A stretch of 32,000 nt of DNA from Candidatus Latescibacterota bacterium (lineage in GTDB: Bacteria > Latescibacterota > UBA2968 > UBA8231), in contig CBDCSU010000006.1 of assembly GCA_965221775.1 (NCBI GenBank), positions 1,223,342 to 1,255,341 of the forward strand. Reading direction: 5' to 3'. A program made the position numbers and the translations under genes. The notes beneath the pieces were generated by a model, which had not been told where the DNA came from, did not search any database, and worked only from the letters and a program-made list of their open reading frames with translations. Each line of letters opens with the position of its first letter. Within the stretch, counting starts at the first letter, position 1. This document shows, piece after piece, positions 4,887 through 30,866 of this stretch.

Positions 4887-4902
4887 GGCCCGGCGGCGAG
4901 CC

Positions 4903-7602: not shown

Positions 7603-7622
7603 GACATCCGACAAGGAGATCC

Positions 7623-12654: not shown

Positions 12655-13058
12655 TTCTCCATGCGCAGGACGCCGACCCGGAACCCGTAGGCCCGGTAGA
12701 AGGCGAGGGCCTCCTCGTTGTGGGCGAGCACGTCGAGGCGGACCCGCTTGTCGGTCCAGATGCGGGCGTACATCCAGTCCATCATTGCCCTGGCGATGCC
12801 GCGCCGGCGATGGGTGCGCGCCACGAAGAGCTGGCGCAGGTAGTAGTGCTCGCCGTCGTCGCGGTAGAGGCAGTAGCCGACCGTCGTCCCCGCCTCCCGC
12901 GCGAGATAGCAGCTGTACCCCTCGCGCAGCCAGCCAGCCATGCGCTCGGCGAGCTGGGCGAGGTTCATGGGGTTGGGATGGCGCTCGTCCTCAATGAGCT
13001 GCCGGTTGAGCTCGGCCAGCTCTTCCACGTCGGCGGCGGTGGCCTTCTCGAAGGTCAT
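12651..13058 (-). CDS. GNAT family N-acetyltransferase
   Basis: 135 aa. Motif A LFVARTHRRRGIARAMMDWM (R/Q-x-x-G-x-A), followed by AHNEEALAFYRAYGF. Confidence 0.85.
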   Translation of the reverse strand: MTFEKATAADVEELAELNRQLIEDERHPNPMNLAQLAERMAGWLREGYSCYLAREAGTTVGYCLYRDDGEHYYLRQLFVARTHRRRGIARAMMDWMYARIWTDKRVRLDVLAHNEEALAFYRAYGFRVGVLRMEK

Positions 13059-13102
13059 GGCCCCAATATAGGTGCCTGCGCGAACCTTCTTACATTACTG
13101 TC
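13059..13102. promoter_or_regulatory. Short divergent intergenic region between GNAT-pip (-) and the Rieske oxygenase gene (+); presumed divergent promoters
   Basis: This is the only relatively AT-rich stretch locally (ccaatataggtgcc...cttacattactgtc). I cannot define confident -35/-10 elements. Confidence 0.3.
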
Positions 13103-14143
13103 ATGTCTTCGTATGGCGATCATGGGCTGCCGCCGTTCCCGGAGGGGTGGTATCTCCTCACGACCCGCGAGTCCCTTCTCCGGAAGGGACTGATCGAGAA
13201 GACCTTCCTCGGCCGGCAAGTCGTCGCCTGGTGCGACGACGAAGGCCGCGTCTGCGTGGCCGACTCCGTGTGTCCCCACCTTGGCTCGAGCCTCGGTCCG
13301 GACGTGGGCGGCCAGGTGTGCAACGGCCGACTCGTCTGTCCCTTCCACGGCTTCCAGTTCGATGCCACCGGCCAATGCGTCGCCACCCCCAACGCCCCGG
13401 CCCCCAAGGCCGCCAGACTGAGCGTCTACCCCACCCGGGAGATCCTCGGCCTCGTCTTCGCCTGGTTCGGCAGCGGCGGCCGGCCTCCGCCCTGGGACCT
13501 TCCCGCGGCCCCTCCCACCACCCCGGAGTGGAGCAAGCCGGGATTCCGGCACCTCCGCTTCCGGGGCCATCCCCAGGAGACGGGGGAGAACTCCGTGGAT
13601 CTTGGACACCTCCGCTACGTGCACGGCTACGACAATGTGCATCCCGTCGGTTCGGTCACGGTGGACGGCCCCTACCTCAAGAGTTGCTTCGACTTCAAGA
13701 GGGTCCGCAGGATCCTCGGGGTAAAGGACCTCGTGTACGAGGTCTCGGCCGTCACCCACATCCATGGACTCGGCTACTCCCTGGTAGAGATCCACGAGAA
13801 GACGATCGACATGCATGCGAGATTGTGGGTGCTCCCCACACCGGTGGATGGCACGCTCCTCGACCTCGTGCTCGTCAGCCAACTGCGCGAGATCCGCAAG
13901 CCCCGGCGGTTCATCACCGGCCTGGGTTTCCTGCCCGGCAAGCTGCGCCAGAAGTCGATGAACCAGATCCTCCTCTCCCAGCAGAAGCGGGACGTCATCC
14001 AGGATGTGGTGATCTGGGAAGGAAAGCGGTTTCGGACGCCGCCGCGGCTGTGCCGGGCCGACGGCCCCATCGGGACGTACCGCCGCTACTGCCGGCAGTT
14101 CTATCCGGAAGACCCGCCGTCGGTGGAAGACGCCGCCGAATAA
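13103..14143 (+). CDS. Rieske [2Fe-2S] non-heme-iron oxygenase, alpha-subunit type (KshA / SdmA / Neverland-PAO-like class)
   Basis: Rieske motif CPHLG...(17 aa)...CPFHGFQF, with the CPH codons at 13271-13279 and the CPFH codons at 13337-13348. Mononuclear iron motif ENSVDLGHLRYVH fits E/D-x3-D-x2-H-x4-H exactly. The N-terminal FPEGWYLL...GLIEKTFLGRQVVAW is typical of this class. Confidence 0.85.
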   Translation: MSSYGDHGLPPFPEGWYLLTTRESLLRKGLIEKTFLGRQVVAWCDDEGRVCVADSVCPHLGSSLGPDVGGQVCNGRLVCPFHGFQFDATGQCVATPNAPAPKAARLSVYPTREILGLVFAWFGSGGRPPPWDLPAAPPTTPEWSKPGFRHLRFRGHPQETGENSVDLGHLRYVHGYDNVHPVGSVTVDGPYLKSCFDFKRVRRILGVKDLVYEVSAVTHIHGLGYSLVEIHEKTIDMHARLWVLPTPVDGTLLDLVLVSQLREIRKPRRFITGLGFLPGKLRQKSMNQILLSQQKRDVIQDVVIWEGKRFRTPPRLCRADGPIGTYRRYCRQFYPEDPPSVEDAAE

Positions 14144-14255
14144 CCGGCCACACAGGTTCGCCTCCGGACCAGAGCGCGGGAAGCCACCGAGGGTACCATG
14201 CGGCGCATCGCCATGATGTACGGGTGGCGCTTCAGGAAGGCGGCGGACTGAACGG

Positions 14256-15329
14256 TTACGGCTTACGAGCCAGGAAACAGTACAGGGGCGTGAAGATACC
14301 CGCCTTGCCGCCCGAGACATAAGCCTCCGCGGTGCGGTCCAGGAGTCGGACCACTTCCGCGGAGCCCTTCGGAAAGCGCCGCAGTACTTCAGCCAGCTTC
14401 GATCCTGCGATGACCGCTTTGCGGCCCCACGGAAGCCTGCGCAAGGCCTTCCCCAACGTCCCGTGGCGGCTCTCCATGGGCTGATACCAGGGTATGGAGG
14501 GGCCTTCCTGGACGTCCAGGTCCATCCCTTCCATGACCTGGAATCCCGCGGCTTCGAGGGCGTGATTCACTTCCCCGAAGGTGGCTATGTGCTTCAGCGC
14601 AATGCCGCGCATGAGATCCCGCTTGATGGCCCGGTGCCGGTCGTCCTTCGGATTGAACTGGTCTGTCAGACACATCTCCTGACCCCAGAACAGGGCCCCG
14701 GGTTTCAGCACGCGGAATACCTCCTCGAAGGCACGTTGCTTGTCCGGCGCGTGGCACGTCGACTCGATGGCATAACCCCGATCGAAGGTGCCGTCCTCAA
14801 TGGCCCTCATGTCCATGAAGCTGCACGTCTCGAAATCGACCATGTGATCGAGCCCCGCCTCGGCGATCGACCCTCTCGCCTTTTCCAACTGCACCTCGCT
14901 GATGTTGATCCCCACGACCCTGACACCAGCCTCCCGGACGACGCGGAGCATGGGGGCGCCGACTCCACAACCAACGTCGACCACCGTCATACCCTTTTGC
15001 AGCTCCAACTTGGAGATCATCATCCGCTGATGCCGGACCTTGGATTCCTCCAGACTCTCATCAGGTGTGAGGGGCGCGAAGTGCAGGGATTCGCCCCAGC
15101 CCCATACCATGAACCCGCTGCAAAGGTCGTAATAGTCCTTCACTGTTTCAGTGTGTTCGTAGCCGCCTGCGCCACCGGGCTGCGGCGCCGCCCGGTCGAG
15201 CCAGCCGTCGAAGTGCTGCACTCGACGCGCGACGCCCGATCCCCGGTACGCATCTCTCAGATCTCTCGACAGCTTGCCCAGCCGCACCCGGTCTTTCTCC
15301 CTGGCTCCAGGAACGAGCCATGTCGTCAA
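14256..15329 (-). CDS. Sterol C-24 methyltransferase family protein (ERG6/SMT-type SAM-dependent methyltransferase with Sterol_MT_C-like tail)
   Basis: YYDLCSGFMVWGWGESLHFAP, the SAM motif VVDVGCGVGAP, YAIESTCHAPD, and the C-terminal GGKAGIFTPLYCFLARKP. These match my memory of yeast Erg6: YYNVVTDFYEYGWGSSFHF, LDVGCGVGGP, YAIEATCHAP, GGKSKLFTPMMLFVARKP. The track start is TTG 15329, 3 nt after the upstream stop; an in-frame GTG about 40 nt downstream is an alternative. Confidence 0.9.
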   Translation of the reverse strand: MTTWLVPGAREKDRVRLGKLSRDLRDAYRGSGVARRVQHFDGWLDRAAPQPGGAGGYEHTETVKDYYDLCSGFMVWGWGESLHFAPLTPDESLEESKVRHQRMMISKLELQKGMTVVDVGCGVGAPMLRVVREAGVRVVGINISEVQLEKARGSIAEAGLDHMVDFETCSFMDMRAIEDGTFDRGYAIESTCHAPDKQRAFEEVFRVLKPGALFWGQEMCLTDQFNPKDDRHRAIKRDLMRGIALKHIATFGEVNHALEAAGFQVMEGMDLDVQEGPSIPWYQPMESRHGTLGKALRRLPWGRKAVIAGSKLAEVLRRFPKGSAEVVRLLDRTAEAYVSGGKAGIFTPLYCFLARKP

Positions 15330-15332
15330 TCG

Positions 15333-17360
15333 TCAGGCGGACAGCTCCCGTCTCTGCTCGGCGATGCGGAACTTCAGCTTCTTGCTCGGTTTGAGCGACG
15401 GAAAGGGACTGAAACGGAGCTTGTACTTCGCTGGCGACACCTCGATCGTGAAGTAGTGCGCCAGCATCAGCAAGTTGGCCGCCAGGTGCAGCTCCATCCA
15501 CCGGGTGCCCAGACACTTGTGCGTACCCAGCCCGTACGGGGCGTACCCGGGGCTGCGATGCTCATGGCGCGGGGCCAGGTAGCGGTCGATGTCGAACTTC
15601 CAGGGATCCGGAAAGACCTCGCTCATGTAATGCGTGGCGGTCATGGCGATGTGGACCCGTTCGCCCACGCGCAGCTCGTAGTCCTCGACCACGCACGCAT
15701 TCATCACGTTCCGCATGGACATGGAGACGATGGGGTACATGCGCAGGCACTCCATGAGGAAGCGGTGCGTCACGTCGATCCTGTCGGGGGTGAAGTCCTC
15801 TCTCTCGGGGTCGCCCTTGGCGAACAGGGCATCCGCTTCGGTCTGGATTCTGGCGTAGAGGTCGGGCTGGGACGCCATGGCGTAGACTACGAGGCTGAAC
15901 GTATCGCCGAGGTAAACGCTGGCAATCAAGGCCGCGGAAAAGGCGAAGAGCAGGTTGGACTCCGGGAGAAACTGCGGGTCGCTGGCGTGCAGGCTGAGGT
16001 AATCGTCCACGAGGTCCCGCGGGAGGTCCGCCCGTTGGGCGGGGGTATGGATGCCCTGGATCCGCTGCATCAGGGTGTCCAGGGCTTTCGCCCGGCGTCT
16101 CATGCCCGGGGTGTTCAGCATGAATCGGGGCAGGAGCTTGGCGATGTGCACGCTGAGGGCCCGTTCCTTGTAGGCCATCAGGTCGTCCATGAGGTCCTGG
16201 GTGTCGACGCTGAGGAACAGGGGCGAGAGCTGGGCGTTCACCATCCCCCGGCACATGGACGTGGCGCGGTAGGAGTCCCCAACCGTCAAGCTCGCCATGT
16301 ACTTGCGCCCCTGATTGTAGAGCTGGTCCAGCTGCTCTCCCAGCCTCGCGCCGGAAAAGGCCGGGGACAAGGACTTGCGAAGCCGGAAGTGATCGGCGCC
16401 GTCCAGGGCGGGCAGGACGCCGGCCGCGCCGTAGACCTTCTCGAAGTCGCTGAAGTAGTCCCTGCATCTCAGGTACATGCGCCCGCGCTTGTGCACCCAG
16501 CGGTTTGTCTCGAGTCCGGCCAGGAAGATCATGGGCTCCGAGAAGGGAGGGCGGATCTGGAACACCGGACCGTACTCCTCCGCAAGGCTCCCGAAGAGCG
16601 CGTTCAGGTTGCCGTCTCGAACATGCGGGTTCATCATCAGCTTGGGCAGCGAAACCGCCGGGATCTTCCTGGTAAGGGGGGGACGTTGAAGGGCCGGGCC
16701 GGTGAGGTTCTGAGAGACCGCAGCGGCCAGGGAGCGGCCGATCAGGTCCATCTTGCAGATGAACTCGATGCGCTCTTCCGCCTCGTCGTCAAGTTCGAAT
16801 ATGAAGCGAAAGACGTCGCACGTATTGATGAGGCAGATAATGATGACATCTCTCGGATCGGGAATCTTGTCGGTGAAGATGACCCTGCTGATACGCGTCT
16901 TTATGAACTGGCCCGCAGTGCCCTCCTCCGACCTGCCGTACAGTTTCCCATGCCAAACAGTAGGAGCCAGCGTCCAGAAATCGCCGTCGTGGTATTCCAG
17001 GATCTTCAGGTCAACCAGGCGATCCAGAACCGAATCGATGATCGACTCCGCACGGGGAGCGAGCCGTTCAATCCAGTACTGGGCGTTCCGTTGAACAGAT
17101 TCGGCTGCAATTTCTTTCAGAATGGGGTCCAGGGCAGGGTTGCCTGTTTCCGACGCGTCCACGAGGAACAGGGATTCCATGTCCGTGTCGATGCGAGATC
17201 TGAGTGAAAGCTCCGCGAGCACGGCACCGACCAGGGCACAGTTCAGATGCCAGCCGGGTACCTGATGAAAGTAGCCGGTCTCCTCGTTGAGGAGCATCAG
17301 GATGAGCTCTTGAGTCAGAGTCAGCGGTTGGGGCGTCAAACCCTCCGTAGTGTCAGTCAT
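15333..17360 (-). CDS. Fusion protein: N-terminal GPP34/GOLPH3-like domain plus C-terminal cytochrome P450
   Basis: N-terminus LTLTQELILMLLNEETGYF...LNCALVGAVLAELSLRSRI...GNPALDPILKEI...PDPRDVIIICLINTC follows the bacterial GPP34 pattern. C-terminus has ExxR (ECLR), PDPWKFDIDRY, and the heme loop PYGLGTHKCLG with the Cys codon at 15513-15515. The ATG start shares a base with the RND stop (TGATG at 17358-17362). Confidence 0.85.
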   Translation of the reverse strand: MTDTTEGLTPQPLTLTQELILMLLNEETGYFHQVPGWHLNCALVGAVLAELSLRSRIDTDMESLFLVDASETGNPALDPILKEIAAESVQRNAQYWIERLAPRAESIIDSVLDRLVDLKILEYHDGDFWTLAPTVWHGKLYGRSEEGTAGQFIKTRISRVIFTDKIPDPRDVIIICLINTCDVFRFIFELDDEAEERIEFICKMDLIGRSLAAAVSQNLTGPALQRPPLTRKIPAVSLPKLMMNPHVRDGNLNALFGSLAEEYGPVFQIRPPFSEPMIFLAGLETNRWVHKRGRMYLRCRDYFSDFEKVYGAAGVLPALDGADHFRLRKSLSPAFSGARLGEQLDQLYNQGRKYMASLTVGDSYRATSMCRGMVNAQLSPLFLSVDTQDLMDDLMAYKERALSVHIAKLLPRFMLNTPGMRRRAKALDTLMQRIQGIHTPAQRADLPRDLVDDYLSLHASDPQFLPESNLLFAFSAALIASVYLGDTFSLVVYAMASQPDLYARIQTEADALFAKGDPEREDFTPDRIDVTHRFLMECLRMYPIVSMSMRNVMNACVVEDYELRVGERVHIAMTATHYMSEVFPDPWKFDIDRYLAPRHEHRSPGYAPYGLGTHKCLGTRWMELHLAANLLMLAHYFTIEVSPAKYKLRFSPFPSLKPSKKLKFRIAEQRRELSA
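15336..16655 (-). other. Cytochrome P450 domain (about residues 236-675 of the fusion)
   Basis: LPALDGADHFRLRK, I-helix-like AALIASVYLGDTFS, ExxR, and the heme-thiolate loop GLGTHKCLG. The CYP family is not assignable by eye. Confidence 0.8.
16716..17324 (-). other. GPP34/GOLPH3-like domain (about residues 13-215 of the fusion)
   Basis: See the parent CDS. The boundaries are my visual estimate. Four 60-nt samples taken between 16741 and 17100 hand-count at 47-58% GC, against 63% for a P450-domain sample. Confidence 0.7.
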
Positions 17361-20300
17361 CAGCCTTCACTCCCTGCGTCTGCACCGGGGACGCGCCGGG
17401 AGCCGGAAGGGCCGCTCGAGGCCGTCAGACGCGAGTGGATGGTGGAAAGAGCGGGAACGACCATCATCAGTACGGCGGTGACAATGAGAATGCCGCAACC
17501 GAGGGATGCGGCAAAGGGGATCAGGAACTGGGCCTGAATGGCGCGTTCCAGAATGAGGGGCGTGAAGCCGAGGAAGGTGGTCACGGAAGTGAGCATGATC
17601 GGACGAAAGCGGCCCTTGGCGCCCTCGATGATCGCTGTTCGCGCCGGGGCCCCGTCCCTGAGTTTCTGATCGATGAAATCGATCATGACCAGGGAATCGT
17701 TCACGACAACCCCGCTCAGGCCGAAGATACCCATGAAGGATACCGCGCTCAAGGCCACTCCCAGGACCCAGTGGCCCAGGATCACCCCGATGAACCCGAA
17801 GGGGATGACGGCCATGATGATGAGGGGCTTGGTATAGGAGCGAAGTGGAATGGCGAGGAGCGCGAAGATCATGATCAGGGCGATGGCGAACCCCCGGTAC
17901 AGGGCATCCAGGGACTCGAGTTGCTGTTGCTGCTCCCCTCCGAAGCTGTATGTCAGGTCAGGGTGCACGGCGGTCAGGCCCGGGAGGATCGAATTGGCCA
18001 GGATGTCGTTGGCTTCGTCACCGGAAATCACCGAAGCATCGACGTCCGCCGTGACCGTGACGACGCGCTGGCCGTCCTTCCGTCGGATGGCCGGCGGCGA
18101 CACGCCCGGGCTCAGGGAGGCCACACTCATGACCGGGACCTCGGCCCCGCCCGGGGTGCGGACCAGGTACCCTTCGACATCGGTGATGGAGTCACGCTCA
18201 TGGGCGGGGAGGCGCACGTAGACCCGGACCTCTTCCCGGCCGCGCTGCACCCGAACCGCCTCTGCGCCGAAGAACGCGGCGCGCGCCTGCCCGGCCAGCT
18301 CCTGGAGCGTGAGACCGAGGGTGCGCGCTTCCGGCCGGAGCTCCAGTTGCACCTCCGGGATGCCCGGCGTGTGATCCGAACGTATGTCGTAGACGCCTCC
18401 CACACTTCGGAGGCCTTCGACCACCGAGTCCGCGATCTCGGCGAGAAGCTCCGGGTCCGGATGCGACAGCACGGCCTCCACGGCGTTGCCCAAGGTGAAG
18501 ACCTCGGCGCTGAAGGTGATGCCGCGCACATGGGGCAGGACTCCCACCTCCTCCCGCCACGCCTGCACGACCTCTCCGGTGGAGATCTGTCTCTGCTGCG
18601 CGCCCAGGAGCTTGAACTCGATGGTGGCGATATTGGCTTGGGGATTGAGTGTGGGCTCCGGGTTGAGCCCGCCCTCGAGTCTCGACCCCTGTCCGACGGT
18701 CACCGTCACACCGGTCAGCAGCGGTGGCGCGTCCCCGGGCCGGCCGAGGGAGAGTCGTTCGATGACCCGGTGGCCTGCGGCCTCCAGTTCCCGCGCCACT
18801 TCGTACGTCCTCGGAGCGGTCGCCCCATCGGGCATCTCCAGGACGACCGTCGCGATATCCCCCTCCACCTCAGCGGCCAGCGTGGTAGGAACGATGCCCG
18901 CGGGCAACAGGGAGATGCTCAGCACGAGCATTCCCACGGCCCCCGCCATCGTCACCCCGGGCTGGTCCGTGGCGAACCTCAGGGCCCGGTCCAGAGGCCC
19001 TTGCAGGAACCTGTTCAGCAGCGCGTTCACGCGCCCCTGGAGCCGCGCGAAGAACCGGTCGAAGGCATTGGCCGGCTCCCACTCCGGGCCGTGCAAATGG
19101 GACAGGTGGTTGGGCAGCACCAGCAGCGATTCGACCAGGGAAACCAGCAGCATGGCGATGATGATGATCGGCAGGGCCCGCCAGACGTCACCGACGCCTC
19201 CCGGGATGAACAGCAAGGGGACGAAGGCCACCACCGAAGTGAGGACGGCGAAGGTCAAGGGCACCTTGATCCGCCGTACGCCTCGGATCGCGGCCGCGAC
19301 CCCGGGGGTCCCCCGCTTGCGTTCCGATTGAATGTGCTCGGCCACGACGATGGCATCGTCGACGATGATGCCGATGGCGAGGACGAAGGAGAACAGGCTG
19401 ATGGTGTTGATCGCCACGTCGAGTGCCATCATGATGGCGAGGGCGCCCATACCAGAAACGGCGAGGCCCACGGCGACCCAGAGGGCGAGCCGGATTTCGA
19501 GAAACAGGCTGAGTGCGATCAGCACCAGCACCAGCCCCAGGAGCCCGTTCTTGAGGAGGAGATCGGCGCGTTCCTCGTAGACTTGGGATTCGTCATTCCA
19601 CATGGTGACGCCCACACCGTCCGGCAGGGCCGGGATCACCTCGTCCGCCAGGTGCTCGCGGACGGTCCTGGCCACGTCCATCACCTGCTCGCCATCGGCC
19701 CGGTAGACCTCGACGAAGACGGCGGGGTGGTTCTGATGCCGCACGATCAGGTCCGCTTCCTGGAAACCGTCGCGGACCTCGGCGATATCTCCAAGGCGCA
19801 GGACCGTGCCGTCACGGCCGCTGAGGAGGACGACCTCCTCGAAGTCCTTCTGGTCGTAGTTCTGGCCGAGGGTGCGGACCCTCACCTGGGATTCCCGGGT
19901 ATCGATGCTGCCGGCGGACAGGTCCAGGGAACTCCGGCGAATCGTGTCGGCGATGTCGGTGAGCGTGAGTCCGAGGGCCCGCAGGCGGTGGAGGGGCACC
20001 TCGATGGAGATCTCGTAGCTCCGGACACCGCTGACCTCGACCTGGGAGACGGAGGGGAGCGTCGTGAGGTCGTCCTCGATCTGGTACGCCAGTTCCTTCA
20101 GCGCGCGCTCGGAGACGTCGCCGTGGACGATGAGCCGCATCATGCTCAGGCGGTTGTCCATCTCCCGGAACAGGGGACGTTCGGCGCCGGCCGGGAAGGA
20201 CTGTATTCGATTGACCGCGGACTCGATATCGTCCAAGGCCCGGGCCATGTCCGTATCGAAAGCCATTTGAACCCGCACCGAGGCCATACCCGGGGCGGCT

Positions 20301-20581
20301 ACGGACTTGACCGCCTTCACGTCATCCAGCCCGCTGACCTGGTCCTCGATCCTGACGACGATCGACTCCTCGATCTCCTCCGGTGTGGCGCCGGGATAGG
20401 CCATCGAGACTTCGATATGGTAGAATGGGGTCGTGGGCCAGGCTTCCCGCTCGATACCGGTCAGCGCCACCACCCCGGCGGCGACGATGGCCCACATCAA
20501 CAGGTTGGCGGCCACACCGTTGCCGGCCATGTAGGCGATCGGGCCGGGCCGTTCCTCGTGATTGCCGTTGCCGGGACTCAT
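17360..20581 (-). CDS. RND efflux transporter permease subunit (AcrB/HAE-type, 12-TM, about 1073 aa)
   Basis: Length and layout fit: an N-terminal TM, then the large periplasmic loop PGATPEEIEESIVVRIEDQVSGLDDVK, two TM bundles with GIIVDDAIVV and VVVNDSLVMIDF motifs. The start shares ATGA with the adaptor stop (20578-20581). Confidence 0.92.
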   Translation of the reverse strand: MSPGNGNHEERPGPIAYMAGNGVAANLLMWAIVAAGVVALTGIEREAWPTTPFYHIEVSMAYPGATPEEIEESIVVRIEDQVSGLDDVKAVKSVAAPGMASVRVQMAFDTDMARALDDIESAVNRIQSFPAGAERPLFREMDNRLSMMRLIVHGDVSERALKELAYQIEDDLTTLPSVSQVEVSGVRSYEISIEVPLHRLRALGLTLTDIADTIRRSSLDLSAGSIDTRESQVRVRTLGQNYDQKDFEEVVLLSGRDGTVLRLGDIAEVRDGFQEADLIVRHQNHPAVFVEVYRADGEQVMDVARTVREHLADEVIPALPDGVGVTMWNDESQVYEERADLLLKNGLLGLVLVLIALSLFLEIRLALWVAVGLAVSGMGALAIMMALDVAINTISLFSFVLAIGIIVDDAIVVAEHIQSERKRGTPGVAAAIRGVRRIKVPLTFAVLTSVVAFVPLLFIPGGVGDVWRALPIIIIAMLLVSLVESLLVLPNHLSHLHGPEWEPANAFDRFFARLQGRVNALLNRFLQGPLDRALRFATDQPGVTMAGAVGMLVLSISLLPAGIVPTTLAAEVEGDIATVVLEMPDGATAPRTYEVARELEAAGHRVIERLSLGRPGDAPPLLTGVTVTVGQGSRLEGGLNPEPTLNPQANIATIEFKLLGAQQRQISTGEVVQAWREEVGVLPHVRGITFSAEVFTLGNAVEAVLSHPDPELLAEIADSVVEGLRSVGGVYDIRSDHTPGIPEVQLELRPEARTLGLTLQELAGQARAAFFGAEAVRVQRGREEVRVYVRLPAHERDSITDVEGYLVRTPGGAEVPVMSVASLSPGVSPPAIRRKDGQRVVTVTADVDASVISGDEANDILANSILPGLTAVHPDLTYSFGGEQQQQLESLDALYRGFAIALIMIFALLAIPLRSYTKPLIIMAVIPFGFIGVILGHWVLGVALSAVSFMGIFGLSGVVVNDSLVMIDFIDQKLRDGAPARTAIIEGAKGRFRPIMLTSVTTFLGFTPLILERAIQAQFLIPFAASLGCGILIVTAVLMMVVPALSTIHSRLTASSGPSGSRRVPGADAGSEG

Positions 20582-21756
20582 GGCGCGGGGTCGGCCTCCG
20601 TGAGGACGCGCATGCCCTCGGTGGCGAACCGGATTCCGCCGGTGACTACCGTGCCGCCGCCTTCCAGGCCGCCGGTGACGAATACCCGGTCGTCGGCGCG
20701 CTGAAGCACGCGCACCGGAACGATGCTCACCACCCCGTCCTTCACCGTCCAGACCTCGTCGCCCGGCTGGAGGGCTGCTCTCGGCACCTTGAAGTAATCA
20801 TCCGGCGCCAGGCCCTCGATCTCCACCTCCACGAAGGCACCCACGAGCAACGGATGCACGCCCGCCGGGAACGGGTCCGTCACGCGCACGATCACGTCGA
20901 TGGTGCGCGTTCGCGCGTCGAGGGCCGCCTCGCCCCGATCGACGTAGCCCTCCCAGGCATGACTCCCGCCGCGCGACGGGGCGACCACCCGGGCCGCCAC
21001 CCGCCGGTCCCCATCCCCCGGCGCGAGTTCCCACAGCCCCGGGATCAGGGCCGCGTCGGCATCGGAGACGGGCACCACCACCTCCACCGCATCCGCGGCG
21101 AAGAGGCGCCCCACGCTCTGTCCGGGCGCGAGAATCTGTCCCACGTCGACGGACTCGTCGCGCACGAAGCCGTCGAAGGGCGCGGTCACCCGTGTCCTGG
21201 AAAGGGAGAGCTCCGCGTCGGCCAGCCGTGCCTGGTCGCGCTCGAGGGCGGCACGGGCCGCCTCCAGTTGCGGCTCCCTCAGGGTGAGGGGACTGGCGGC
21301 CGGCGCCGAAGATGCACTCCCCTGCCGCTCGGAGTAGAGCCGGTACTGGTCGCGGGCGATGGCGGCCCGTTCCTCTTCCTCGAGCAGGGCCACGCGGCGG
21401 GCGGCGAGATTGGCCTCGGCTTCCTGCACCCGGTGGAGGTAGTCCGCCTCTTCGATGCGGAACAGCGCCTGGCCCGCCTTCACCCGGCCCCCGCTCTGGA
21501 ATCCCGGGTCCACCCACACGACTCGCCCGCCCACCTGCGGCGCCACGTCGATCTCCGCGCTCGGCCTCACGGTGCCGGCCCCGTACACGGGTATGGCGCC
21601 GGACCCGGCCGTTACCCGGCCCGTCTGGGCGAAGGGGATCTGCGGCGGCGGCTCGGTGCGGGCCGGCTCGGGGGCCATGGAGACCAGGAGGGCCGCCAGG
21701 CCCACGGCAACGACGAGGATGGCGGCGGCGGCGACGAGGCTGCGGATGCGGGACAT
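20578..21756 (-). CDS. RND efflux periplasmic adaptor (membrane fusion protein, HlyD/AcrA family)
   Basis: The start is moved to ATG 21756 (MSRIRSLVAAAAILVVAVGLAALLV, a membrane anchor). Also present: barrel-sandwich and coiled-coil regions (EADYLHRVQEAEANLAARR...QLEAARAALERDQARLADAELSLSRTRVTAPFDGFV). The track start at 21891 would overlap the OMF gene. Confidence 0.85.
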   Translation of the reverse strand: MSRIRSLVAAAAILVVAVGLAALLVSMAPEPARTEPPPQIPFAQTGRVTAGSGAIPVYGAGTVRPSAEIDVAPQVGGRVVWVDPGFQSGGRVKAGQALFRIEEADYLHRVQEAEANLAARRVALLEEEERAAIARDQYRLYSERQGSASSAPAASPLTLREPQLEAARAALERDQARLADAELSLSRTRVTAPFDGFVRDESVDVGQILAPGQSVGRLFAADAVEVVVPVSDADAALIPGLWELAPGDGDRRVAARVVAPSRGGSHAWEGYVDRGEAALDARTRTIDVIVRVTDPFPAGVHPLLVGAFVEVEIEGLAPDDYFKVPRAALQPGDEVWTVKDGVVSIVPVRVLQRADDRVFVTGGLEGGGTVVTGGIRFATEGMRVLTEADPAP

Positions 21757-21763
21757 GGGCGAC

Positions 21764-23308
21764 TTACTCCGTGGAGGTCGGCGGCGGGGTAGCGGCAGCC
21801 GCGCTGCTCTGCCGGATGGCTTCCCGGTTGTCGGCGGTCCACGCGCCGCCCAGCGCGCGGTGCAGCGCGAGGCGGGCGTAGCCGAGGTCACGTTCGGCGG
21901 CCGCCTGCGCGGCCTGCGCGCCGAGGAGAGTCTGCGATGCGGCCAGGAAAGCCTCGTACCCGCCGACCCCGGAGAGGTACCGCCGCTCCTGCAACCCCGC
22001 TTCGGCCCCGGCCTCCTCTGCCAGCGAGACCAGCAGCGAGTGGCGGCGGCGGCTGGCCTCCAGACCGGCGAGAGCGGCCTCGACCTCGTTGACCGCGGTC
22101 ACCACGGCCCGCCCGTAGGCGGCGGCCGCCTCATCCAGCCGGGCCTCGGCGAGAGCGACATTGCCGCGAAGGCGTGAACCCTGGAAAACCGGGCCGAGCA
22201 GGTTCAGGCTGAGATTCCGGAACCACTGATCCGGGTCGAACCACTCGTCCGCCTCGGTGCTCTGCACTCCGATGGAGCCGTGCAGGGACAGTCGCGGCAG
22301 CAGGTCCGCGCGGCGGGCGCCGACGGTGTACCGGGCCGCTTCCGCCCGCTGCCTGGCGGCGCCGACGTCGGGCCGCTGCGCCAGGAGGCCGGCGGGAATG
22401 CCGGCCGGGACCGGCTCCAGCGCCGCGGCAGGGGTCAGCGGGCCGGGCAGCCTGTCCGCGAGGTCGGCGCGGTAACCTCCCAGGAGCACCCACAGCCGCC
22501 CCTCCGCATCGGCCAGCAGGGCCTCGATCTGCGGCAGCCCGGCCTGCGTGTTGCGCAGATGGCGCCGCGCCGCATGGAGGCCGCCCGCATCGCTCAGGCC
22601 GCGGCCATAGCGGGACTCGGCAAGGGACTCCTGGTGCCGCAGGATCTCCACGATCTCGCCGGTCAGCCTCCGCTGCCGGCGCAGGTTGGCGATCTCGAGG
22701 TAGGTCCGCACGGTCTCGGCCAGCACCCCCATGCGGGCTGTGAGGTAGTCGGACTCCGAGGCCAGCCGCGCGGCCCCGGCGGCGAGGGCGTCGTTTCGGT
22801 TCCGGCCCCAGAAGTCGAGCTCGTAGGCGACTTCCGCGGCGGCGGTATAGGTGGTCAGTCCGAGACGGTCGGGGAGAACGAGTCCGGATGCACCCAGACC
22901 GGACTCCAGGCCCAGTTCGTCGAATTGGGCGCCGATGCCCGCATTGGTGGGTGTGTCGGAGTCGCTGACGCCGACCGAGGGCTGAAGGAGCGGAAAGACC
23001 GGGGCCCTGGCGATGCGGGCCCGGGCCCTGGCCTGATCGACCCGGGCCACCGCCGCGGCCAGGTCGAAGTTCGAGGCGAGCACCTCCGCGATCACCCGGT
23101 CGAGCATCGGGTCGGAAAAGCTCTTCCACCACTCCCGCGGCTCGTAGGGACCGGCCGCTTCCCCGCCGGCGAACCCGGCCGGCAGCTCCTCCACCGACTC
23201 GAGGACCGGGGGGGTCTGCTTCGGTGCAAGGGAGCAGGCGGAGATGAGACAGCCGACGATGGCCGGCCTCAGCAATCCGGAAACCTGGTTCCTCCCATAG
23301 CAGGCCAT
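21764..23308 (-). CDS. RND efflux outer-membrane factor lipoprotein (NodT/TolC family)
   Basis: Lipobox GCLISAC. WWKSFSDPMLDRVIAEVLASNFDLAAAVARVDQARA and the repeated alpha-helical/beta-barrel halves are typical of NodT-family OMFs. Stop TAA at 21764-21766. Confidence 0.88.
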   Translation of the reverse strand: MACYGRNQVSGLLRPAIVGCLISACSLAPKQTPPVLESVEELPAGFAGGEAAGPYEPREWWKSFSDPMLDRVIAEVLASNFDLAAAVARVDQARARARIARAPVFPLLQPSVGVSDSDTPTNAGIGAQFDELGLESGLGASGLVLPDRLGLTTYTAAAEVAYELDFWGRNRNDALAAGAARLASESDYLTARMGVLAETVRTYLEIANLRRQRRLTGEIVEILRHQESLAESRYGRGLSDAGGLHAARRHLRNTQAGLPQIEALLADAEGRLWVLLGGYRADLADRLPGPLTPAAALEPVPAGIPAGLLAQRPDVGAARQRAEAARYTVGARRADLLPRLSLHGSIGVQSTEADEWFDPDQWFRNLSLNLLGPVFQGSRLRGNVALAEARLDEAAAAYGRAVVTAVNEVEAALAGLEASRRRHSLLVSLAEEAGAEAGLQERRYLSGVGGYEAFLAASQTLLGAQAAQAAAERDLGYARLALHRALGGAWTADNREAIRQSSAAAATPPPTSTE

Positions 23309-23416
23309 CTCCCTACCCTCTCGCGGCGACGGCAGCGGGGCACACCAAAGCCTCTGTCATCTTGCCGTGACCTTCCGAAGTGTACGCAATCAAGGGAAAT
23401 CCGGCATGGTTGCGGG
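23309..23416 (-). promoter_or_regulatory. 108-nt region upstream of the efflux/P450/SMT operon; presumed promoter plus RBS (GGGAG just before ATG 23308)
   Basis: This is the only sizeable gap on the minus strand between 24964 and 14256. The minus-strand reading contains TTGATTGCGTACAC. I cannot define a confident -10 element. Confidence 0.3.
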
Positions 23417-24964
23417 TCAGGACCCCGGCGAGTCGACGAACTGGAAGGCGTACAACTTGCAGTCGCGCATGACGAAACGGATCCGGACGGGTGTCCCGGA
23501 CAACGGGCCGACATCCCCGCCCTTCTTCCAGCGGACGGGCATGCGCACCGAGTTGCCGCAGATCCAGGAGGCGTCGCGCTCCGTGTACCCGCCGAGGGGA
23601 CGTCCCTCCGCATCCTGAAGCTCGACGCGCACGGCGCCGCCGCCGCCGGTGTCGAGGTTCAGCTCCAGACGCCGGCCCTCGAAGCGGACGACGGGCGTGA
23701 CGATCTCGCCGCCGCCGTAGCCCGCATCCGCCGACACGAACCCGTCGAGCCGCAGGATGGCCCGGCCGATGCCGGAGAGGTGGCCCCCGCCCGCCGGGTC
23801 GACGAGGCCGTCGTGGTCGCGGTTGGTGCCGCTGTAGTAGATCCAGATCTCGTCACCCCTTCGCACCGGCTGCGGCATGGCCCAGACCATGCGCGAGGAG
23901 AAGCCGCCTTCGGGCCCCGGGCTCAGGAAGGGCCGCCGTCCGCCGCAGCGCAGGAAGTTCACTCCGTCGCGGCTCACCGACAGACGCGCGTCGAAGCGGC
24001 TGGGGCCGTAGATCTGCTGTGTCTCTGTGCGCGGGACGTCCATGTCGTCGCGGACCGTGGTCACCACCGGCTCGCGGTTGAACCAGTACCAGTTGGCGTT
24101 GGCCAGCATGACGTACACGCCGTGGGCGTCCGGGTACTTGAAGACGGTGGCGCCGTAGTAGTCCATCGGCGTCCTGCCGTACGGCTTCTCCGGCGCCGTG
24201 GGATCCAGCGGCGCCCCGGTCTCGTACGTCGCCAGGTCTTCCTCGTCCGGCCACATGACCGTCTTCTGGTTCTCCCAGTTGACCAGATCGTCGGATTCGA
24301 GACGCCGGACCGTCCGGTAGTTCTCGTTGCCGGTGGCGGTGGTGTGGCGTTTGGCGACCCAGCGGCGGGTGTAGAGGACGTAGCGCCCGATGGCGGGGTC
24401 CCGGAAGATGATGCTCTGCGTATCCCAGCCGCCGCGGTGCGGAAGCTGCATGCGGCGAAGGAACTTCCAGTGGATTCCGTCGGGCGAGCCGTGCATGTGG
24501 AACTGCATCGCCACATCCGGATTGTAGACCTTCGACTGGTTCTTGTAGCGCTCCTCCGGCGGGGCCTTCGGGTCGATCCAGACCGAGCTGCCGCCGATCT
24601 TGCCCGGGATGACGACGTTGTTGGCCGTCGACCCGCCTTCGTCGATGAGGTTCAGCTCCGGCTTGTCGAAGTGGATGCCGTCCGTCGACTCGGCATAGCC
24701 GACGTAGGCCTGCTCCAGGCCGGGCCCGGACCCCGCCTTGCGCACGTGATACCACAGCCGGATACGGCCGTCCTCTTCCTGCAGCACGCTGCTGTAGATG
24801 CCGAAGCTGGTGGTGGACGGATCCTCCCACGGGGCGCCGGCGGTGACCACCGGCTCCGCCGCCTGGCCGGGTGGATTCATGGTGAGCTCGACGCCATGGC
24901 CGGCGGCGATCAAGCGATCGTCGACGAAGAGCTGCTTCCTCGATCCGATGTCCATCGGCTTCAT
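23417..24964 (-). CDS. Putative glycoside hydrolase-like beta-propeller protein with C-terminal beta-sandwich (GH32/43/117-like fold; family not assignable)
   Basis: The start is set at ATG 24964, preceded by GGGAGGG (complement of 24969-24975). The N-terminal KQLFVDDRLI opening and the C-terminal RLDGFVSA...PVRIRFVMRDCKLYAFQF are recurrent in uncharacterised GH-like propeller proteins. No signal peptide. The track ORF extends to 26275 only as an antisense shadow. Confidence 0.65.
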   Translation of the reverse strand: MKPMDIGSRKQLFVDDRLIAAGHGVELTMNPPGQAAEPVVTAGAPWEDPSTTSFGIYSSVLQEEDGRIRLWYHVRKAGSGPGLEQAYVGYAESTDGIHFDKPELNLIDEGGSTANNVVIPGKIGGSSVWIDPKAPPEERYKNQSKVYNPDVAMQFHMHGSPDGIHWKFLRRMQLPHRGGWDTQSIIFRDPAIGRYVLYTRRWVAKRHTTATGNENYRTVRRLESDDLVNWENQKTVMWPDEEDLATYETGAPLDPTAPEKPYGRTPMDYYGATVFKYPDAHGVYVMLANANWYWFNREPVVTTVRDDMDVPRTETQQIYGPSRFDARLSVSRDGVNFLRCGGRRPFLSPGPEGGFSSRMVWAMPQPVRRGDEIWIYYSGTNRDHDGLVDPAGGGHLSGIGRAILRLDGFVSADAGYGGGEIVTPVVRFEGRRLELNLDTGGGGAVRVELQDAEGRPLGGYTERDASWICGNSVRMPVRWKKGGDVGPLSGTPVRIRFVMRDCKLYAFQFVDSPGS

Positions 24965-25039
24965 GATGCCCTCCCTGCAAACCCTCGCTTCGTGCTCACC
25001 TTCGGTTTGTCTATCATTGCGCGCCCGCAGAGACGCCTT
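24965..25039. promoter_or_regulatory. Divergent intergenic region between the GH-like gene (-) and the BNR gene (+)
   Basis: Lower local GC (tttgtctatcattgc...gaaattgtac). The length depends on the uncertain start of the + gene. Confidence 0.3.
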
Positions 25040-26251
25040 GTGAATCACTCGAAATTGTACTGGGACGAGACCCGCTACTCCAGCTTCCCCACGGTGGTCG
25101 GGGGAGACCGCGGCGAGCTGTGGGTCGGCTTCGACTGGAACTCCCACACGCCGCTTTCCCGGGGGGTCCAGGGTGCGGCGCACTCCCACGCAGGTGGCCT
25201 GGCGGGAGGCGCCACCGGTCACGTGGAGTTGTTCTCCCCGGACGGGGGGGACAACTGGTTCGAGGAGGGGAAGGACGGGCGGTACCGCCAGTGCCCGGAG
25301 GCGCTGAGAAGCGCCGTGCTCAGCGACGGCACGCAGGTCCGGATCTCCCGTCCCGTCAACGCCTACCCACCCGGGCGCAGGCAGGAGTTCGAGGCCCGCG
25401 GCTTTGCGGTGGAGGAGTTCCCCGGGCGCATCCACGTGGAGCACAGCCTGCGGGTGTCGCGAAAGCGGCCGCGACAGGGCTCCTGGGAACACCTTCTGCT
25501 CCGGAGCGGCGAGGAGCTGCCGTTCTTCGCCCTCGTCCGCAACGGGTCCGACCTGAAGAGCTGTGTTCTGGCCGGCGATACGATTCTGCACCAGGTCTAC
25601 GGGAGCGCCCGGGCCGGCGATCCGTACCGGGCGTGGGTGCTGCGCTCGGAAGACGGCGGCGACACCTGGGAGATGGTGACGATGGCGTACGACGGCGGCG
25701 AGCATCCCTTCAACGAGAGCAGCCTGCTGGCGCTGCCGGGGGGCCGCATCGTGGCGATGGTGCGCACCTCGAGCGGCAGCAAGCGCATTCCACAGGAGGA
25801 GAAGCACCTCTTCCAGACACACTCGGACGACGGCGGCAAGACCTGGAGCCGGGTGAGAAAGACCGGGATGTGGGGATATCCTCCGCACCTGCTGCTGCTG
25901 AGCAGCGGCGATGTCCTGTGCAGCTACGGACACCGGCGGGCCCCCTTCGGGGTGCGGGCCTGCCTGTCCCGCGATGGCTGCGAGACCTGGGAGACCGACG
26001 ACGAGATCGTGCTCCGCGATGACGGTCTCACGACCGACGGGACCGTGGCCGGGAAGGGAACCCCCGACGACCTGGGTTACCCGCGGACGGTGGAGCTGCC
26101 CGACGGCTCGCTGTTCACCGTGTACTACATGACCCTCGGCGACAGCGTGACCCACGTCGCCGCTACCCGATGGACGCTGGGTCCGGCCCAGGCCTCCGCT
26201 TCGCGCCGGCCGCGTGCGCGCGGGACTGTGCCCGCCGCCCCCGGTCCCTGA
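25040..26251 (+). CDS. BNR/Asp-box repeat protein with sialidase-type beta-propeller fold (no RIP motif)
   Basis: Asp-boxes SEDGGDTW, SDDGGKTW, SRDGCETW, plus the degenerate SPDGGDNW. Only the last ~1.2 kb of the 22280-26251 track ORF is plausible. The start is uncertain: GTG 25040 is chosen, with GTG 24992 or TTG 25007 as alternatives. The C-terminal 24 aa are low-complexity. Confidence 0.7.
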   Translation: MNHSKLYWDETRYSSFPTVVGGDRGELWVGFDWNSHTPLSRGVQGAAHSHAGGLAGGATGHVELFSPDGGDNWFEEGKDGRYRQCPEALRSAVLSDGTQVRISRPVNAYPPGRRQEFEARGFAVEEFPGRIHVEHSLRVSRKRPRQGSWEHLLLRSGEELPFFALVRNGSDLKSCVLAGDTILHQVYGSARAGDPYRAWVLRSEDGGDTWEMVTMAYDGGEHPFNESSLLALPGGRIVAMVRTSSGSKRIPQEEKHLFQTHSDDGGKTWSRVRKTGMWGYPPHLLLLSSGDVLCSYGHRRAPFGVRACLSRDGCETWETDDEIVLRDDGLTTDGTVAGKGTPDDLGYPRTVELPDGSLFTVYYMTLGDSVTHVAATRWTLGPAQASASRRPRARGTVPAAPGP

Positions 26252-29342: not shown

Positions 29343-30077
29343 GTGACCCGGGCCTTGGGCGCCATACTGCGGCGGATCGTCGATGCCCTGCGCGACCTGG
29401 CGCCGATCATCCTCGTCATCGCCTTCTTCCAGATCGTGGTGCTGCAGCAGCCGTTCCCGGATCTCGGGCGCGTCACCCTCGGCCTGGTCTGCGTGATCGC
29501 CGGCCTGACGCTCTTCATCCAGGGGCTTGAGAGCGGCCTCTTCCCCCTGGGCGAGGCGATCGCCCAGGCCTTTGCCCGCAAGGGCAGCGCCACGGCCCTG
29601 CTGGCCTTCGCCTTCTGCCTCGGCTTCGGCACCACCGTCGCGGAACCGGCCCTGATCGCCGTGGCCGCGGAGGCGGCCGAGGTCGCCGCCGAAGCCGGCG
29701 CCATCGCCGACCACGACGGGGCGCGCGGCTCGTATGCCTTCAACCTGCGCATGGTGGTGGCCGTCTCCGTCGGCGCCGCGATCCTGCTCGGCGTGCTGCG
29801 CATCCTCAAGGGCTGGCCCCTCCACCGGCTGATCATCGGCGGCTACGTGGTGGTCACCGCCATGACCGCCTTCGCGCCCCCGGAGATCATCGGCGTGGCC
29901 TACGACTCCGGCGGCGTCACCACCAGCACGATCACGGTGCCCCTGGTCACCGCCCTCGGTGTGGGGCTCGCCACGTCGATCCGGGGGCGCAACCCGATGG
30001 TCGACGGCTTCGGGCTCATCGCCTTCGCCAGTCTGACGCCGATGATCTTCGTCCTCGCCTACGGCATGGTGGTCTGA
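29343..30077 (+). CDS. DUF1538 family integral membrane protein (copy 1)
   Basis: Multi-TM protein with the [17 protein letters not shown] loop, [14 protein letters not shown] and [25 protein letters not shown]...[15 protein letters not shown], which are family hallmarks as I recall them. GTG start. Confidence 0.78.
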
Positions 30078-30078
30078 G

Positions 30079-30864: not shown

Positions 30865-30866
30865 CC

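Follow-up and report, generated by a model that had tools for sequence, protein, structure and literature searches.

The stretch of DNA analysed here (the window; 32,000 nucleotides of a Candidatus Latescibacterota bacterium, GenBank assembly GCA_965221775.1, contig CBDCSU010000006.1, positions 1,223,342 to 1,255,341 of the forward strand) contains an apparent minus-strand operon of five genes, encoding a tripartite efflux pump of the resistance-nodulation-division (RND) superfamily, a fusion of a GPP34 domain to a cytochrome P450, and a divergent member of the sterol methyltransferase (SMT) family. A gene for a KshA-like Rieske oxygenase converges on it. It is probable that the operon and the convergent Rieske gene form one functional unit, the diderm version of a mobile module that would tailor and export a sterol or triterpenoid, found in bacteria of sponges and corals. 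The features concerned are as follows:

21764..23308, minus strand: outer-membrane factor (OMF), NodT-type lipoprotein, 514 aa, first gene of the operon (OEP, TIGR01845)
20578..21756, minus strand: periplasmic adaptor (membrane fusion protein), 392 aa (HlyD_3, HlyD_D23, TIGR01730)
17360..20581, minus strand: RND inner-membrane permease of the AcrB/MdtB class, 1073 aa (ACR_tran)
15333..17360, minus strand: GPP34-cytochrome P450 fusion, 675 aa, the "GPP34_L" of the literature (Pfam GPP34 and p450)
16713..17318, minus strand: GPP34 (GOLPH3/Vps74-like) domain, fusion residues 15-216 (PF05719, 102 bits, 1e-29)
15375..16646, minus strand: cytochrome P450 domain, fusion residues 239-662 (Pfam p450, 1e-31)
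15288..15332, minus strand: spacer of 45 nt from the P450 stop to the likely start of the SMT, from sequence and orthologue comparison; contains the Shine-Dalgarno-like GGGAGAAAGA and TTG 15329
14256..15287, minus strand: divergent SMT-family enzyme ("module-type" SMT), 343 aa, last gene of the operon (CMAS/Methyltransf_11 and Sterol_MT_C)
13103..14143, plus strand: KshA-like Rieske non-heme-iron oxygenase, 346 aa, convergent (PF00355 Rieske and PF19298 KshA_C)

All five minus-strand open reading frames (ORFs) were found at the coordinates, and with the domains (Pfam and NCBIfam matches), that a first-pass annotation made from the sequence alone had given them, in the order OMF, adaptor, RND permease, GPP34-P450 fusion, SMT. 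Three of the tight junctions that it described were likewise read in the sequence: 7 nt lie between the OMF stop (TAA) and the adaptor ATG (21756), the adaptor stop and RND start have ATGA in common (4-nt overlap, 20578-20581), and the RND stop and fusion start have TGATG in common (1-nt overlap, 17358-17362). The fourth junction had been read as a P450 stop at 15333 followed 3 nt later by an SMT start at TTG 15329. The P450 TGA is indeed followed by CGA and then by this TTG, but the probable start is GTG 15287, so the gap is one of 45 nt, a spacing that by sequence is still operon-like. TTG 15329 was dropped on three grounds: the 343 aa of public gene calls for the SMT correspond to a start at GTG 15287, 14 of 16 same-strand SMT orthologues begin with M-R/A/K/G-x-G/A/V-K/E-L where the window has this GTG (MRLG(K/E)L in 11 of those orthologues), and GGGAGAAAGA precedes it. 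A longer adaptor start (GTG 21891) was also dropped because the adaptor gene would then run into that of the OMF; in public gene calls the start is ATG 21756. A scan of 12900-25200, which encloses the whole cluster, gave no promoter-like sites, and terminator-like sites were as frequent as in shuffled sequence (5 versus 4.9 expected). A tRNA search and Rfam returned nothing informative, and no TetR-type or other regulator was identified among the annotated genes of the window. The first-pass annotation had also raised the possibility of a chimeric contig, broken at 17360 or 15330; this is unlikely because five public contigs that are independent of one another, one with a length of 934 kb, have an identical fusion protein and the same gene order. 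The GC content of the window is ~0.68 (fusion 0.615, SMT 0.626, rest 0.686; adaptor and OMF genes 0.73), with a dip to 0.60-0.64 over 14256-18000, which takes in the genes for the SMT and the fusion as well as the 3' end of that for RND.

The fusion protein was modelled with confidence by AlphaFold2 (pLDDT 89.5, pTM 0.86), no signal peptide or N-terminal transmembrane segment was predicted in it, and its GPP34 and P450 halves are conserved to a like degree (72% versus 73%). A profile of the GPP34 domain matches Vps74 and GOLPH3 (E 3e-11 to 3e-10). In those eukaryotic proteins, phosphatidylinositol 4-phosphate (PI4P) is bound by a pocket of four residues (GOLPH3 W81, R90, R171 and R174, equivalent to Vps74 W88, R97, K178 and R181; Wood et al., PMC2806290). 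Both pairwise and profile alignments place W88/R97/K178/R181 at P35/V44/E105/I108 of the fusion, and across 83 orthologues these positions hold P, V/I/A, E/D and I/V, respectively; an invariant tryptophan of the domain, W37, stands two residues from a pocket position. The PI4P pocket is thus not conserved and appears to have been lost. GPP34 fused to a Rieske domain or an ABC ATPase has also been reported (PMC11706023), which fits a role of the domain as an accessory of lipid enzymes and transporters, and in the fusion GPP34 would act as a membrane- or lipid-docking element and not as a PI4P reader.

The P450 half has a heme-thiolate Cys loop (FxxGxHxCxG) and an ExxR motif; its heme cysteine (Cys616), E537/R540, G610 and H614 are invariant across 36 diverse family members. 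The I-helix has a conserved D486, and the "alcohol" position after it is alanine in 52 of 83 orthologues; distant members of the fusion family have the canonical AGxDT. A Foldseek search with the AlphaFold2 model retrieved P450 BM3, Methylococcus capsulatus CYP51 (TM-score 0.84, 20% identity) and CYP120, at 15 to 21% identity; these fold neighbours are generic P450s and give no clue to the substrate. No NCBIfam equivalog reached its cutoff over this domain. Identification as CYP51 was ruled out, both by its best CYP51 match in the PDB (E 1e-16 over the C-terminal half, 20% identity) and because the clusters contain, in addition to the fusion, a CYP51-like P450 of its own.

This architecture has already been described as GPP34_L, which was reported solely from sponge symbionts and is expressed in Aplysina (Microbiome 2025, PMC11706023). 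The same study found GPP34 genes in 16 of 20 phyla analysed and proposed for GPP34 the role of an effector that is secreted, binds PI4P and stops phagosomes from maturing. Its analysis of flanking genes concerned short GPP34 in Actinobacteriota only, and the words sterol, methyltransferase, RND and efflux are all absent from its main text. The first-pass statement that no system with this gene order had been described therefore holds for the union of the genes, which is new in the searchable literature, but not for the fusion, which was already published.

The SMT has a class I methyltransferase domain (CMAS/Methyltransf_11) followed by Sterol_MT_C (PF08498, 52.9 bits against a cutoff of 21.7). 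It is 33% identical to ERG6, 42 to 44% identical to canonical bacterial SMT paralogues and 79% identical to a Nitrospira SMT ("2 of 2") that has been tested. For residue numbering, we presume that the ERG6 reference sequence is correct; it was checked against numbered motifs and the published identity of 35.63%. All module SMTs have the signature S/N78, M81, L89 and I249, while canonical SMT paralogues of the same clusters have T78, Y/F/G81 and F89. All functional SMTs share 25 conserved residues, among them Region I (GWGxxFHF), T78, F89, G132, D189 and L341, and residues 81, 83 and 249 line the pocket for the sterol side chain (Brown and Welander, 2025 preprint). The window SMT departs from the functional set at S78, L89 and A132; module SMTs keep D125, G127, G129, P133, E195, G217, W286, G333, G352, F357 and P359, and the motif binding S-adenosylmethionine (SAM) is intact. 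By these residues the module SMTs are a divergent clade and not canonical ERG6-type enzymes, as the first-pass annotation had called the window protein.

One module SMT has been assayed. A 70,077-bp contig among the loci compared here (L036) is the one that Brown et al. 2023 list as "Nitrospira sp., coral reef"; it agrees in gene order with IMG genes 2682229270-277, and its module SMT, 35.632% identical to ERG6 (35.63 published), is gene 2682229270, the "2 of 2" enzyme assayed in that study. It falls outside the "functional" set because it has S78, L89, N189 and M341, from which we deduce that it was apparently inactive on the standard substrates (desmosterol and 24-methylenecholesterol). For the clade as a whole, a different substrate seems more likely than a dead enzyme because of the strong conservation across phyla.

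The Rieske protein encoded by the convergent gene has complete motifs for the iron-sulfur cluster (CPH...CPFH) and the catalytic iron (E-x3-D-x2-H-x4-H), and its best solved relatives are KshA, a 3-ketosteroid 9-alpha-hydroxylase (E 3e-23). It is not SdmA, the 4-beta-methylsterol monooxygenase of bacterial sterol C-4 demethylation (NF052579, 32 bits against a cutoff of 600); a separate SdmA-like gene is found in the same clusters, and the copy at locus L019 scores 407 bits, also below the cutoff. On one of the five contigs with the identical fusion (L001:13218-14263; ERZ25068503 contig_13, 934 kb) the Rieske gene is called as fragments of 99 and 247 aa and several neighbours are also broken, either through indel errors in the assembly or as real pseudogenes; it is intact on the other four. 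In many other genomes the module is linked to a 462-aa flavoprotein, an FAD oxidoreductase with a Pfam Amino_oxidase match over residues 20-274, whose NCBIfam matches (HpnE, protoporphyrinogen oxidase) cover the N-terminal FAD-binding fold only.

Among the pump components, the OMF matches Pfam OEP (2.5e-39) and TIGR01845 outer_NodT (264.7 bits, cutoff 210), has a lipobox (LISAC) near its N-terminus, and has orthologues (56 to 76% identical) adjoining the module in 11 GTDB loci. The adaptor, given as 392 aa in public gene calls as well, has an N-terminal membrane anchor and matches TIGR01730 RND_mfp (177.7 bits, cutoff 94.9). The permease matches ACR_tran (1.3e-156 over residues 23-1045) and has 12 hydrophobic segments (~12 transmembrane helices). 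Its closest solved structures are AcrB-class efflux permeases (AcrB, MexB) and MdtB (best E 4e-71), and it scores below the cutoffs of multidrug models (RND_permease_2, 418 bits versus 1250; TIGR00915, 303 versus 940). Against the NCBIfam models for the lipid-moving transporters (TIGR03480, NF052374 and NF045600), which have an HAE3/MMPL architecture of ~850 to 900 aa, there was no HpnN or BstA match; the broad HAE3 model was the sole NCBIfam match from the HpnN/BstA branch, at 37.8 bits against a cutoff of 351.9. These matches place the permease as a divergent member of the AcrB/HAE1-like class. Nesting of the RND subunit among ordinary HAE1 pumps had been named in the first-pass annotation as an argument against its own proposal, and on this point profiles and structures side with that argument.

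To establish how widely these genes occur together, one genome per GTDB species was scanned with an alignment of 10 fusion sequences; of 548 fusion loci, the best 80 were kept, and 10 kb on either side of the fusion was annotated by tblastn and de novo ORF clustering (individual loci are cited by L numbers). Fusions of the 80 loci are 68 to 90% identical to the window protein, and the loci are labelled, among others, Longimicrobiales/Gemmatimonadota, Latescibacterota, Vicinamibacteria, Nitrospirales, Opitutales, Binatia, Thermodesulfobacteriota, Chloroflexota/Dehalococcoidia, Acidimicrobiia, and Alpha- and Gammaproteobacteria. A module SMT (60 to 88% identical) lay within 10 kb of the fusion in 61 of the 80 loci and within 300 bp in 54, a KshA-like Rieske oxygenase within 10 kb in 61, and the flavoprotein nearby in 41. 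An RND-superfamily transporter of any type was found in 64 of 80 loci, or 57 of the 66 with full flanks. More divergent relatives of the fusion (42 to 64% identical) in sponge metagenomes keep the same partners. The linkage of RND, P450 and SMT that was noticed in the window is thus recurrent, in many lineages and orientations, and the gene order, whose uniqueness to this contig would have spoken against a functional link, is not unique to it.

The transporter is the variable part of the module. The AcrB-type pump (permease 71 to 93% identical) was found in 22 loci, none labelled Chloroflexota, and its placement is not fixed: it lies on the same strand, either upstream or downstream, or else downstream in inverted orientation; orthologues of the permease at these identities occur in loci labelled Longimicrobiales, Latescibacterota, Vicinamibacteria, Opitutales, Binatia and Thermodesulfobacteriota. 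A transporter of the MMPL type with a sterol-sensing domain was found in 42 loci, mostly Chloroflexota, and an 827-aa MMPL protein is present in 40 of 45 Chloroflexota loci and in an Acidimicrobiia locus. The Chloroflexota protein has Pfam matches to Patched and the sterol-sensing domain, its nearest solved relatives are Patched-1, MmpL4/5, HpnN, MmpL3 and NPC1, and its scores for HAE3 (206 bits), HpnN (91 bits) and BstA (30 bits) are all under the curated cutoffs. Transporter type follows lineage and, probably, envelope type.

Several further arrangements were seen around the module. In 12 Chloroflexota loci (L024, L041, L043, L047, L050, L052, L054, L056, L060 at 4973-7236, L062, L066 and L069) a gene for an LppX/LprAFG-like (LprG-like) lipoprotein stands beside a gene for a transporter of the major facilitator superfamily (MFS), a pair that resembles the mycobacterial lipid-export pair LprG-Rv1410c. 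Nitrospirales-type loci with neither RND nor MMPL genes nearby have a gene for an OMP_b-brl beta-barrel between the Rieske and flavoprotein genes (L019:14286-15200, L036 at ~14459, L135 at ~3647). Four loci (L103, L104, L130 and L131) have two fusion paralogues each, with identities to the window protein of 63%/60% and 43%/42%; those of L130 and L131 flank the flavoprotein gene, beside an RND pump.

In other lineages the module adjoins genes of sterol synthesis, in agreement with the sterol-like context proposed in the first-pass annotation. Contigs of Binatia, Opitutales, Nitrospirales and from Aplysina have it in contact with genes for squalene epoxidase (SE) and oxidosqualene cyclase (OSC), CYP51-like P450, ERG24, and SdmA and SdmB. 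The Binatia locus L027 reads OMF-adaptor-RND, DUF7802, a protein of the fatty-acid-hydroxylase family, KshA-like Rieske, fusion, ERG24, CYP51-like P450, an SE-OSC fusion, two canonical SMTs and an SdmA-like Rieske protein. In an Opitutales locus (L028), 22 kb hold SdmB-like, SMT, OSC, SE, CYP51-like, ERG24 and SdmA-like genes together with the GPP34-P450 fusion, the Rieske gene, the module SMT and the whole tripartite pump, and the surroundings at L029, L078, L122 and L147 are similar to those of L027 and L028. L147, from Aplysina, agrees in gene order with the published cluster JGIcombinedJ30088_10000835, and its fusion directly adjoins the SMT that is ~35% identical to ERG6. OSC and the fusion lie on one chromosome in two Nitrospirales (matching sizes 2,258,192 and 2,529,447 bp). 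A search with a sponge-symbiont OSC returned no relative labelled Gemmatimonadota or Latescibacterota among the best 120 matches. In the accessible parts of the main text and supplementary files of the studies that described such clusters (PMC10070321, PMC9531527), erg and sdm homologues are annotated, and P450, RND, Rieske and GPP34 do not appear. It is also worth noting that SE and OSC are fused in L027 (14554-17943, plus strand; ~1129 aa) and that this fusion is widespread in sponge symbionts, most of the 120 best OSC matches (P0272-P0390) being ~1090 to 1170 aa long and 77 to 93% identical; the supplement of Brown et al. implies the same by giving one gene ID for both ERG1 and ERG7.

The module was also sought in JGI metagenomes (241 million records). 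All full-length or near-identical partial matches to the fusion fell under the prefixes LXNJ, LXNI, MKWU (which we take to denote Aplysina), Ga02090xx, Ga0209544, Ga0209754 and JGI2479x; matches under other prefixes were distant (26 to 29% identical) and confined to the P450 region. According to the supplement of Brown et al., LXNJ is Petrosia, LXNI is Sarcotragus and Ga0209021 is Aplysina. Where the prefix can be checked, the module is restricted to metagenomes, and to genomes assembled from metagenomes (MAGs), of sponges and corals. Across about ten phylum- or class-level labels, identity to the window proteins is 68 to 90% for the fusion, 60 to 88% for the SMT and 71 to 93% for the RND permease; flanks range from 0.51 to 0.71 in GC across loci, versus 0.55 to 0.64 for the fusion gene; and the closest relatives (L006-L008) already differ in their flanking genes. 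The best reading of these comparisons is that the module is horizontally mobile.

Some other genes of the window were noted as well. Upstream of the OMF gene, on the same strand after a gap of 108 nt, lies an ORF of 515 aa (23417-24964, minus strand) that has no Pfam or NCBIfam match and no transmembrane segment and is conserved in the five near-identical contigs only, not in other module loci. On the plus strand, two very large ORFs (~900 to 975 aa; 4675-10432) have almost no family matches, one having a C-terminal FlgD_ig domain only, and are followed by a Peripla_BP_6 binding protein (10470-11606). Two BNR_2 genes (sialidase-like beta-propeller; 3079-4104 and ~25580-26114, both plus strand), a UvrD-type helicase whose N-terminus is helicase-IV-like and whose C-terminus has two topoisomerase-type zinc ribbons (26170-29166, plus strand), and a group comprising two tandem DUF1538 membrane-protein genes, a small ORF that is P-II-like by eye and a CBS-domain protein (29343-31615, plus strand) were also seen.

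If the operon and the Rieske gene act as one unit, the starting point would be a sterol or related squalene-derived triterpenoid in the cytoplasmic membrane, made by the epoxidase-cyclase pathway of the symbiont where present, or taken from the host. The P450 would oxidise this membrane lipid, with the N-terminal GPP34 domain, lacking its PI4P pocket, docking peripherally to the membrane or lipid and replacing the transmembrane anchor of eukaryotic sterol P450s. The Rieske oxygenase would carry out a second oxidation, and in many genomes the amine-oxidase-type flavoprotein would act as well. The divergent SMT would add a C-methyl group, M81 and L89 (in the sterol-binding Region I) and I249 being suited to a substrate other than desmosterol or 24-methylenecholesterol. 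The AcrB-type pump would then pick up the product in the inner membrane or periplasm and release it by way of the OMF, to the outer membrane or the environment; in Chloroflexota, export would fall to the MMPL transporter with its sterol-sensing domain, often with the LprG-like lipoprotein and MFS protein. The recurrent linkage of pump and enzymes and the sterol context bear out this much of the first-pass proposal that the pump exports the product of the P450, SMT and Rieske enzymes; the substrate, the order of the reactions, the product, and the direction of transport to the outer membrane are what we infer from them.

A number of observations weigh against this reading. Neither a cyclase nor any other sterol gene was found within the 32-kb window, and no ferredoxin or reductase partner is linked. 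Looking for a cyclase further out, exact-protein look-ups with three genes from the window's edges returned no match. By sequence the permease resembles AcrB and MdtB, a class known for drug and solvent efflux, and not HpnN or BstA. The apparent inactivity of the tested SMT equally fits another sterol, a non-sterol substrate or a dead enzyme. About 20% of the fusion loci have no transporter within 10 kb, and about 24% have no module SMT. Taxon labels of MAGs are those of the source records, and some may be in error: homologues close to the fusion (73 to 92% identical) are named Gemmatimonadota or Candidatus Palauibacter there, its closest GTDB representatives are labelled Latescibacterota, and with both phyla given the label of the nearest relatives is uncertain. 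For every component the support is genomic and the function predicted.

Other explanations account for part of these data. In the published effector model, GPP34_L would be secreted, bind host PI4P and block phagosome maturation (PMC11706023), with neighbouring genes either incidental or serving its secretion. The limitation of the family to host-associated bacteria, its expression in a sponge, the binding of PI4P by eukaryotic GOLPH3 and Vps74, and an export system encoded beside the fusion would all suit such a role. We nonetheless regard it as very unlikely, given the replacement of all four pocket residues in 83 orthologues (P35, V/I/A44, E/D105, I/V108), the lack of a predicted signal peptide or N-terminal transmembrane segment, the fused and intact heme P450 that requires cytoplasmic redox partners, and the position of the gene inside sterol biosynthesis clusters and beside an SMT in most genomes; moreover, tripartite RND pumps are established carriers of small molecules, not of 75-kDa proteins. 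That an ordinary multidrug or solvent pump stands beside unrelated lipid enzymes by chance is more improbable still, even though the RND subunit matches generic multidrug models and AcrB/MexB/MdtB structures, and RND operons are common and often neighbour unrelated genes. The same RND orthologue accompanies the fusion in 22 species-representative loci under about seven lineage labels, sometimes inverted or displaced, and does so on sponge contigs with more divergent relatives of the fusion; another RND-superfamily lipid transporter substitutes for it in Chloroflexota; and in the window the RND stop overlaps the fusion start.

The two remaining alternatives, both improbable, concern the nature of the substrate. 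The module could serve to detoxify or partially degrade host steroids, the P450 and the KshA-like enzyme oxidising sponge sterols or steroidal defence compounds that the pump then expels, which would agree with the steroid-catabolic role of KshA (the closest solved relative of the Rieske protein), the absence of a cyclase from the window, the suitability of an AcrB-type pump for expulsion and the limitation of the module to sterol-rich hosts. A SAM-dependent C-methyltransferase is, however, an anabolic tailoring enzyme; the conserved neighbours are SMT, Rieske oxygenase, flavoprotein and transporters (no search was aimed at KstD, Hsa, beta-oxidation or Mce genes); and the module is contiguous with genes of de novo sterol synthesis in several lineages. 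Alternatively, the substrate could be a non-sterol isoprenoid, for example squalene, a triterpenoid that is acyclic or cyclised in another way, or a molecule akin to a carotenoid, with the triterpene methyltransferases of Botryococcus as a model for an SMT-like enzyme of this kind. Loss of Y/F81 and F89 of the sterol-binding Region I from the SMT clade points in this direction, as does the membership of the linked flavoprotein in the amine-oxidase/phytoene-desaturase-type superfamily; retention of Sterol_MT_C and of most residues conserved among SMTs, the neighbouring CYP51-like, ERG24 and SdmA/B enzymes, which act after cyclisation, and the sterol-sensing-domain signature of the Chloroflexota transporter point away from it.

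The pieces of this module were known already; to judge by the searchable literature, the new element is their union, which challenges the published effector model for GPP34_L. It joins two literatures, that on symbiont SMTs (the debate over 24-isopropylcholestane and 26-methylstigmastane as biomarkers) and that on GPP34_L as a marker of symbiosis, and provides the orphan SMT paralogue with candidate partner enzymes (P450, Rieske oxygenase and flavoprotein). The pump would be the first candidate for a classic three-component RND pump (or, in Chloroflexota, an MMPL protein bearing a sterol-sensing domain) dedicated to a bacterial sterol-like product, and if so, symbionts would send that product out of the cell, possibly to the host. 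Spread over about ten lineage labels at 68 to 90% identity marks the module as a strongly selected, horizontally shared trait of symbiosis. A bolder version, in which GPP34_L is a docking domain and a modified sterol (with unconventional side-chain methylation or an oxidised nucleus) is exported as a symbiosis factor or into the lipid pool of the host, is tentative and on the whole doubtful; were it true, some "sponge-specific" sterols that serve as animal biomarkers would come from bacteria of many phyla and not from the sponge.

Compared with known systems, the window protein is itself a member of GPP34_L (PMC11706023), with identical domain architecture, length and habitat, but differs from the published account in lacking a conserved PI4P pocket and in the linkage of its gene with an SMT, a Rieske oxygenase and lipid transporters. 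The SMT-containing sterol clusters described from symbionts of sponges and corals (Brown et al. 2023, PMC10070321; Kelly et al. 2022, PMC9531527) come from the same organisms, partly from the same contigs, and encode the same SMT family, whereas the window SMT is a divergent paralogue, not a canonical 24-methylating or propylating enzyme, and no cyclase accompanies it in the window. The Rieske protein is like KshA and SdmA in its Rieske [2Fe-2S] domain, its KshA-type catalytic domain with the iron motif and its steroid-related context; unlike in KshA systems, KshB, KstD and catabolic genes were not identified among the conserved neighbours of the module, among which KstD, Hsa, beta-oxidation and Mce genes were not specifically searched for. 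With the HAE1-type pumps AcrAB-TolC, MexAB-OprM and MdtABC, the window pump has in common its three components, operon order, domains, ~12 transmembrane helices and lipoprotein OMF, but its permease is only distantly related to theirs and is co-inherited with lipid-tailoring enzymes across phyla. Further parallels are the sterol transport system BstA/BstB/BstC of Methylococcus capsulatus and the hopanoid transporter HpnN, in which a transporter of the RND superfamily is likewise genetically linked to the metabolism of cyclic triterpenoids and outward movement of lipid has been proposed. No BstB or BstC homologues were identified with the window pump, which differs from these systems in being a classic OMF-adaptor-AcrB-type assembly encoded in one operon with the tailoring enzymes.

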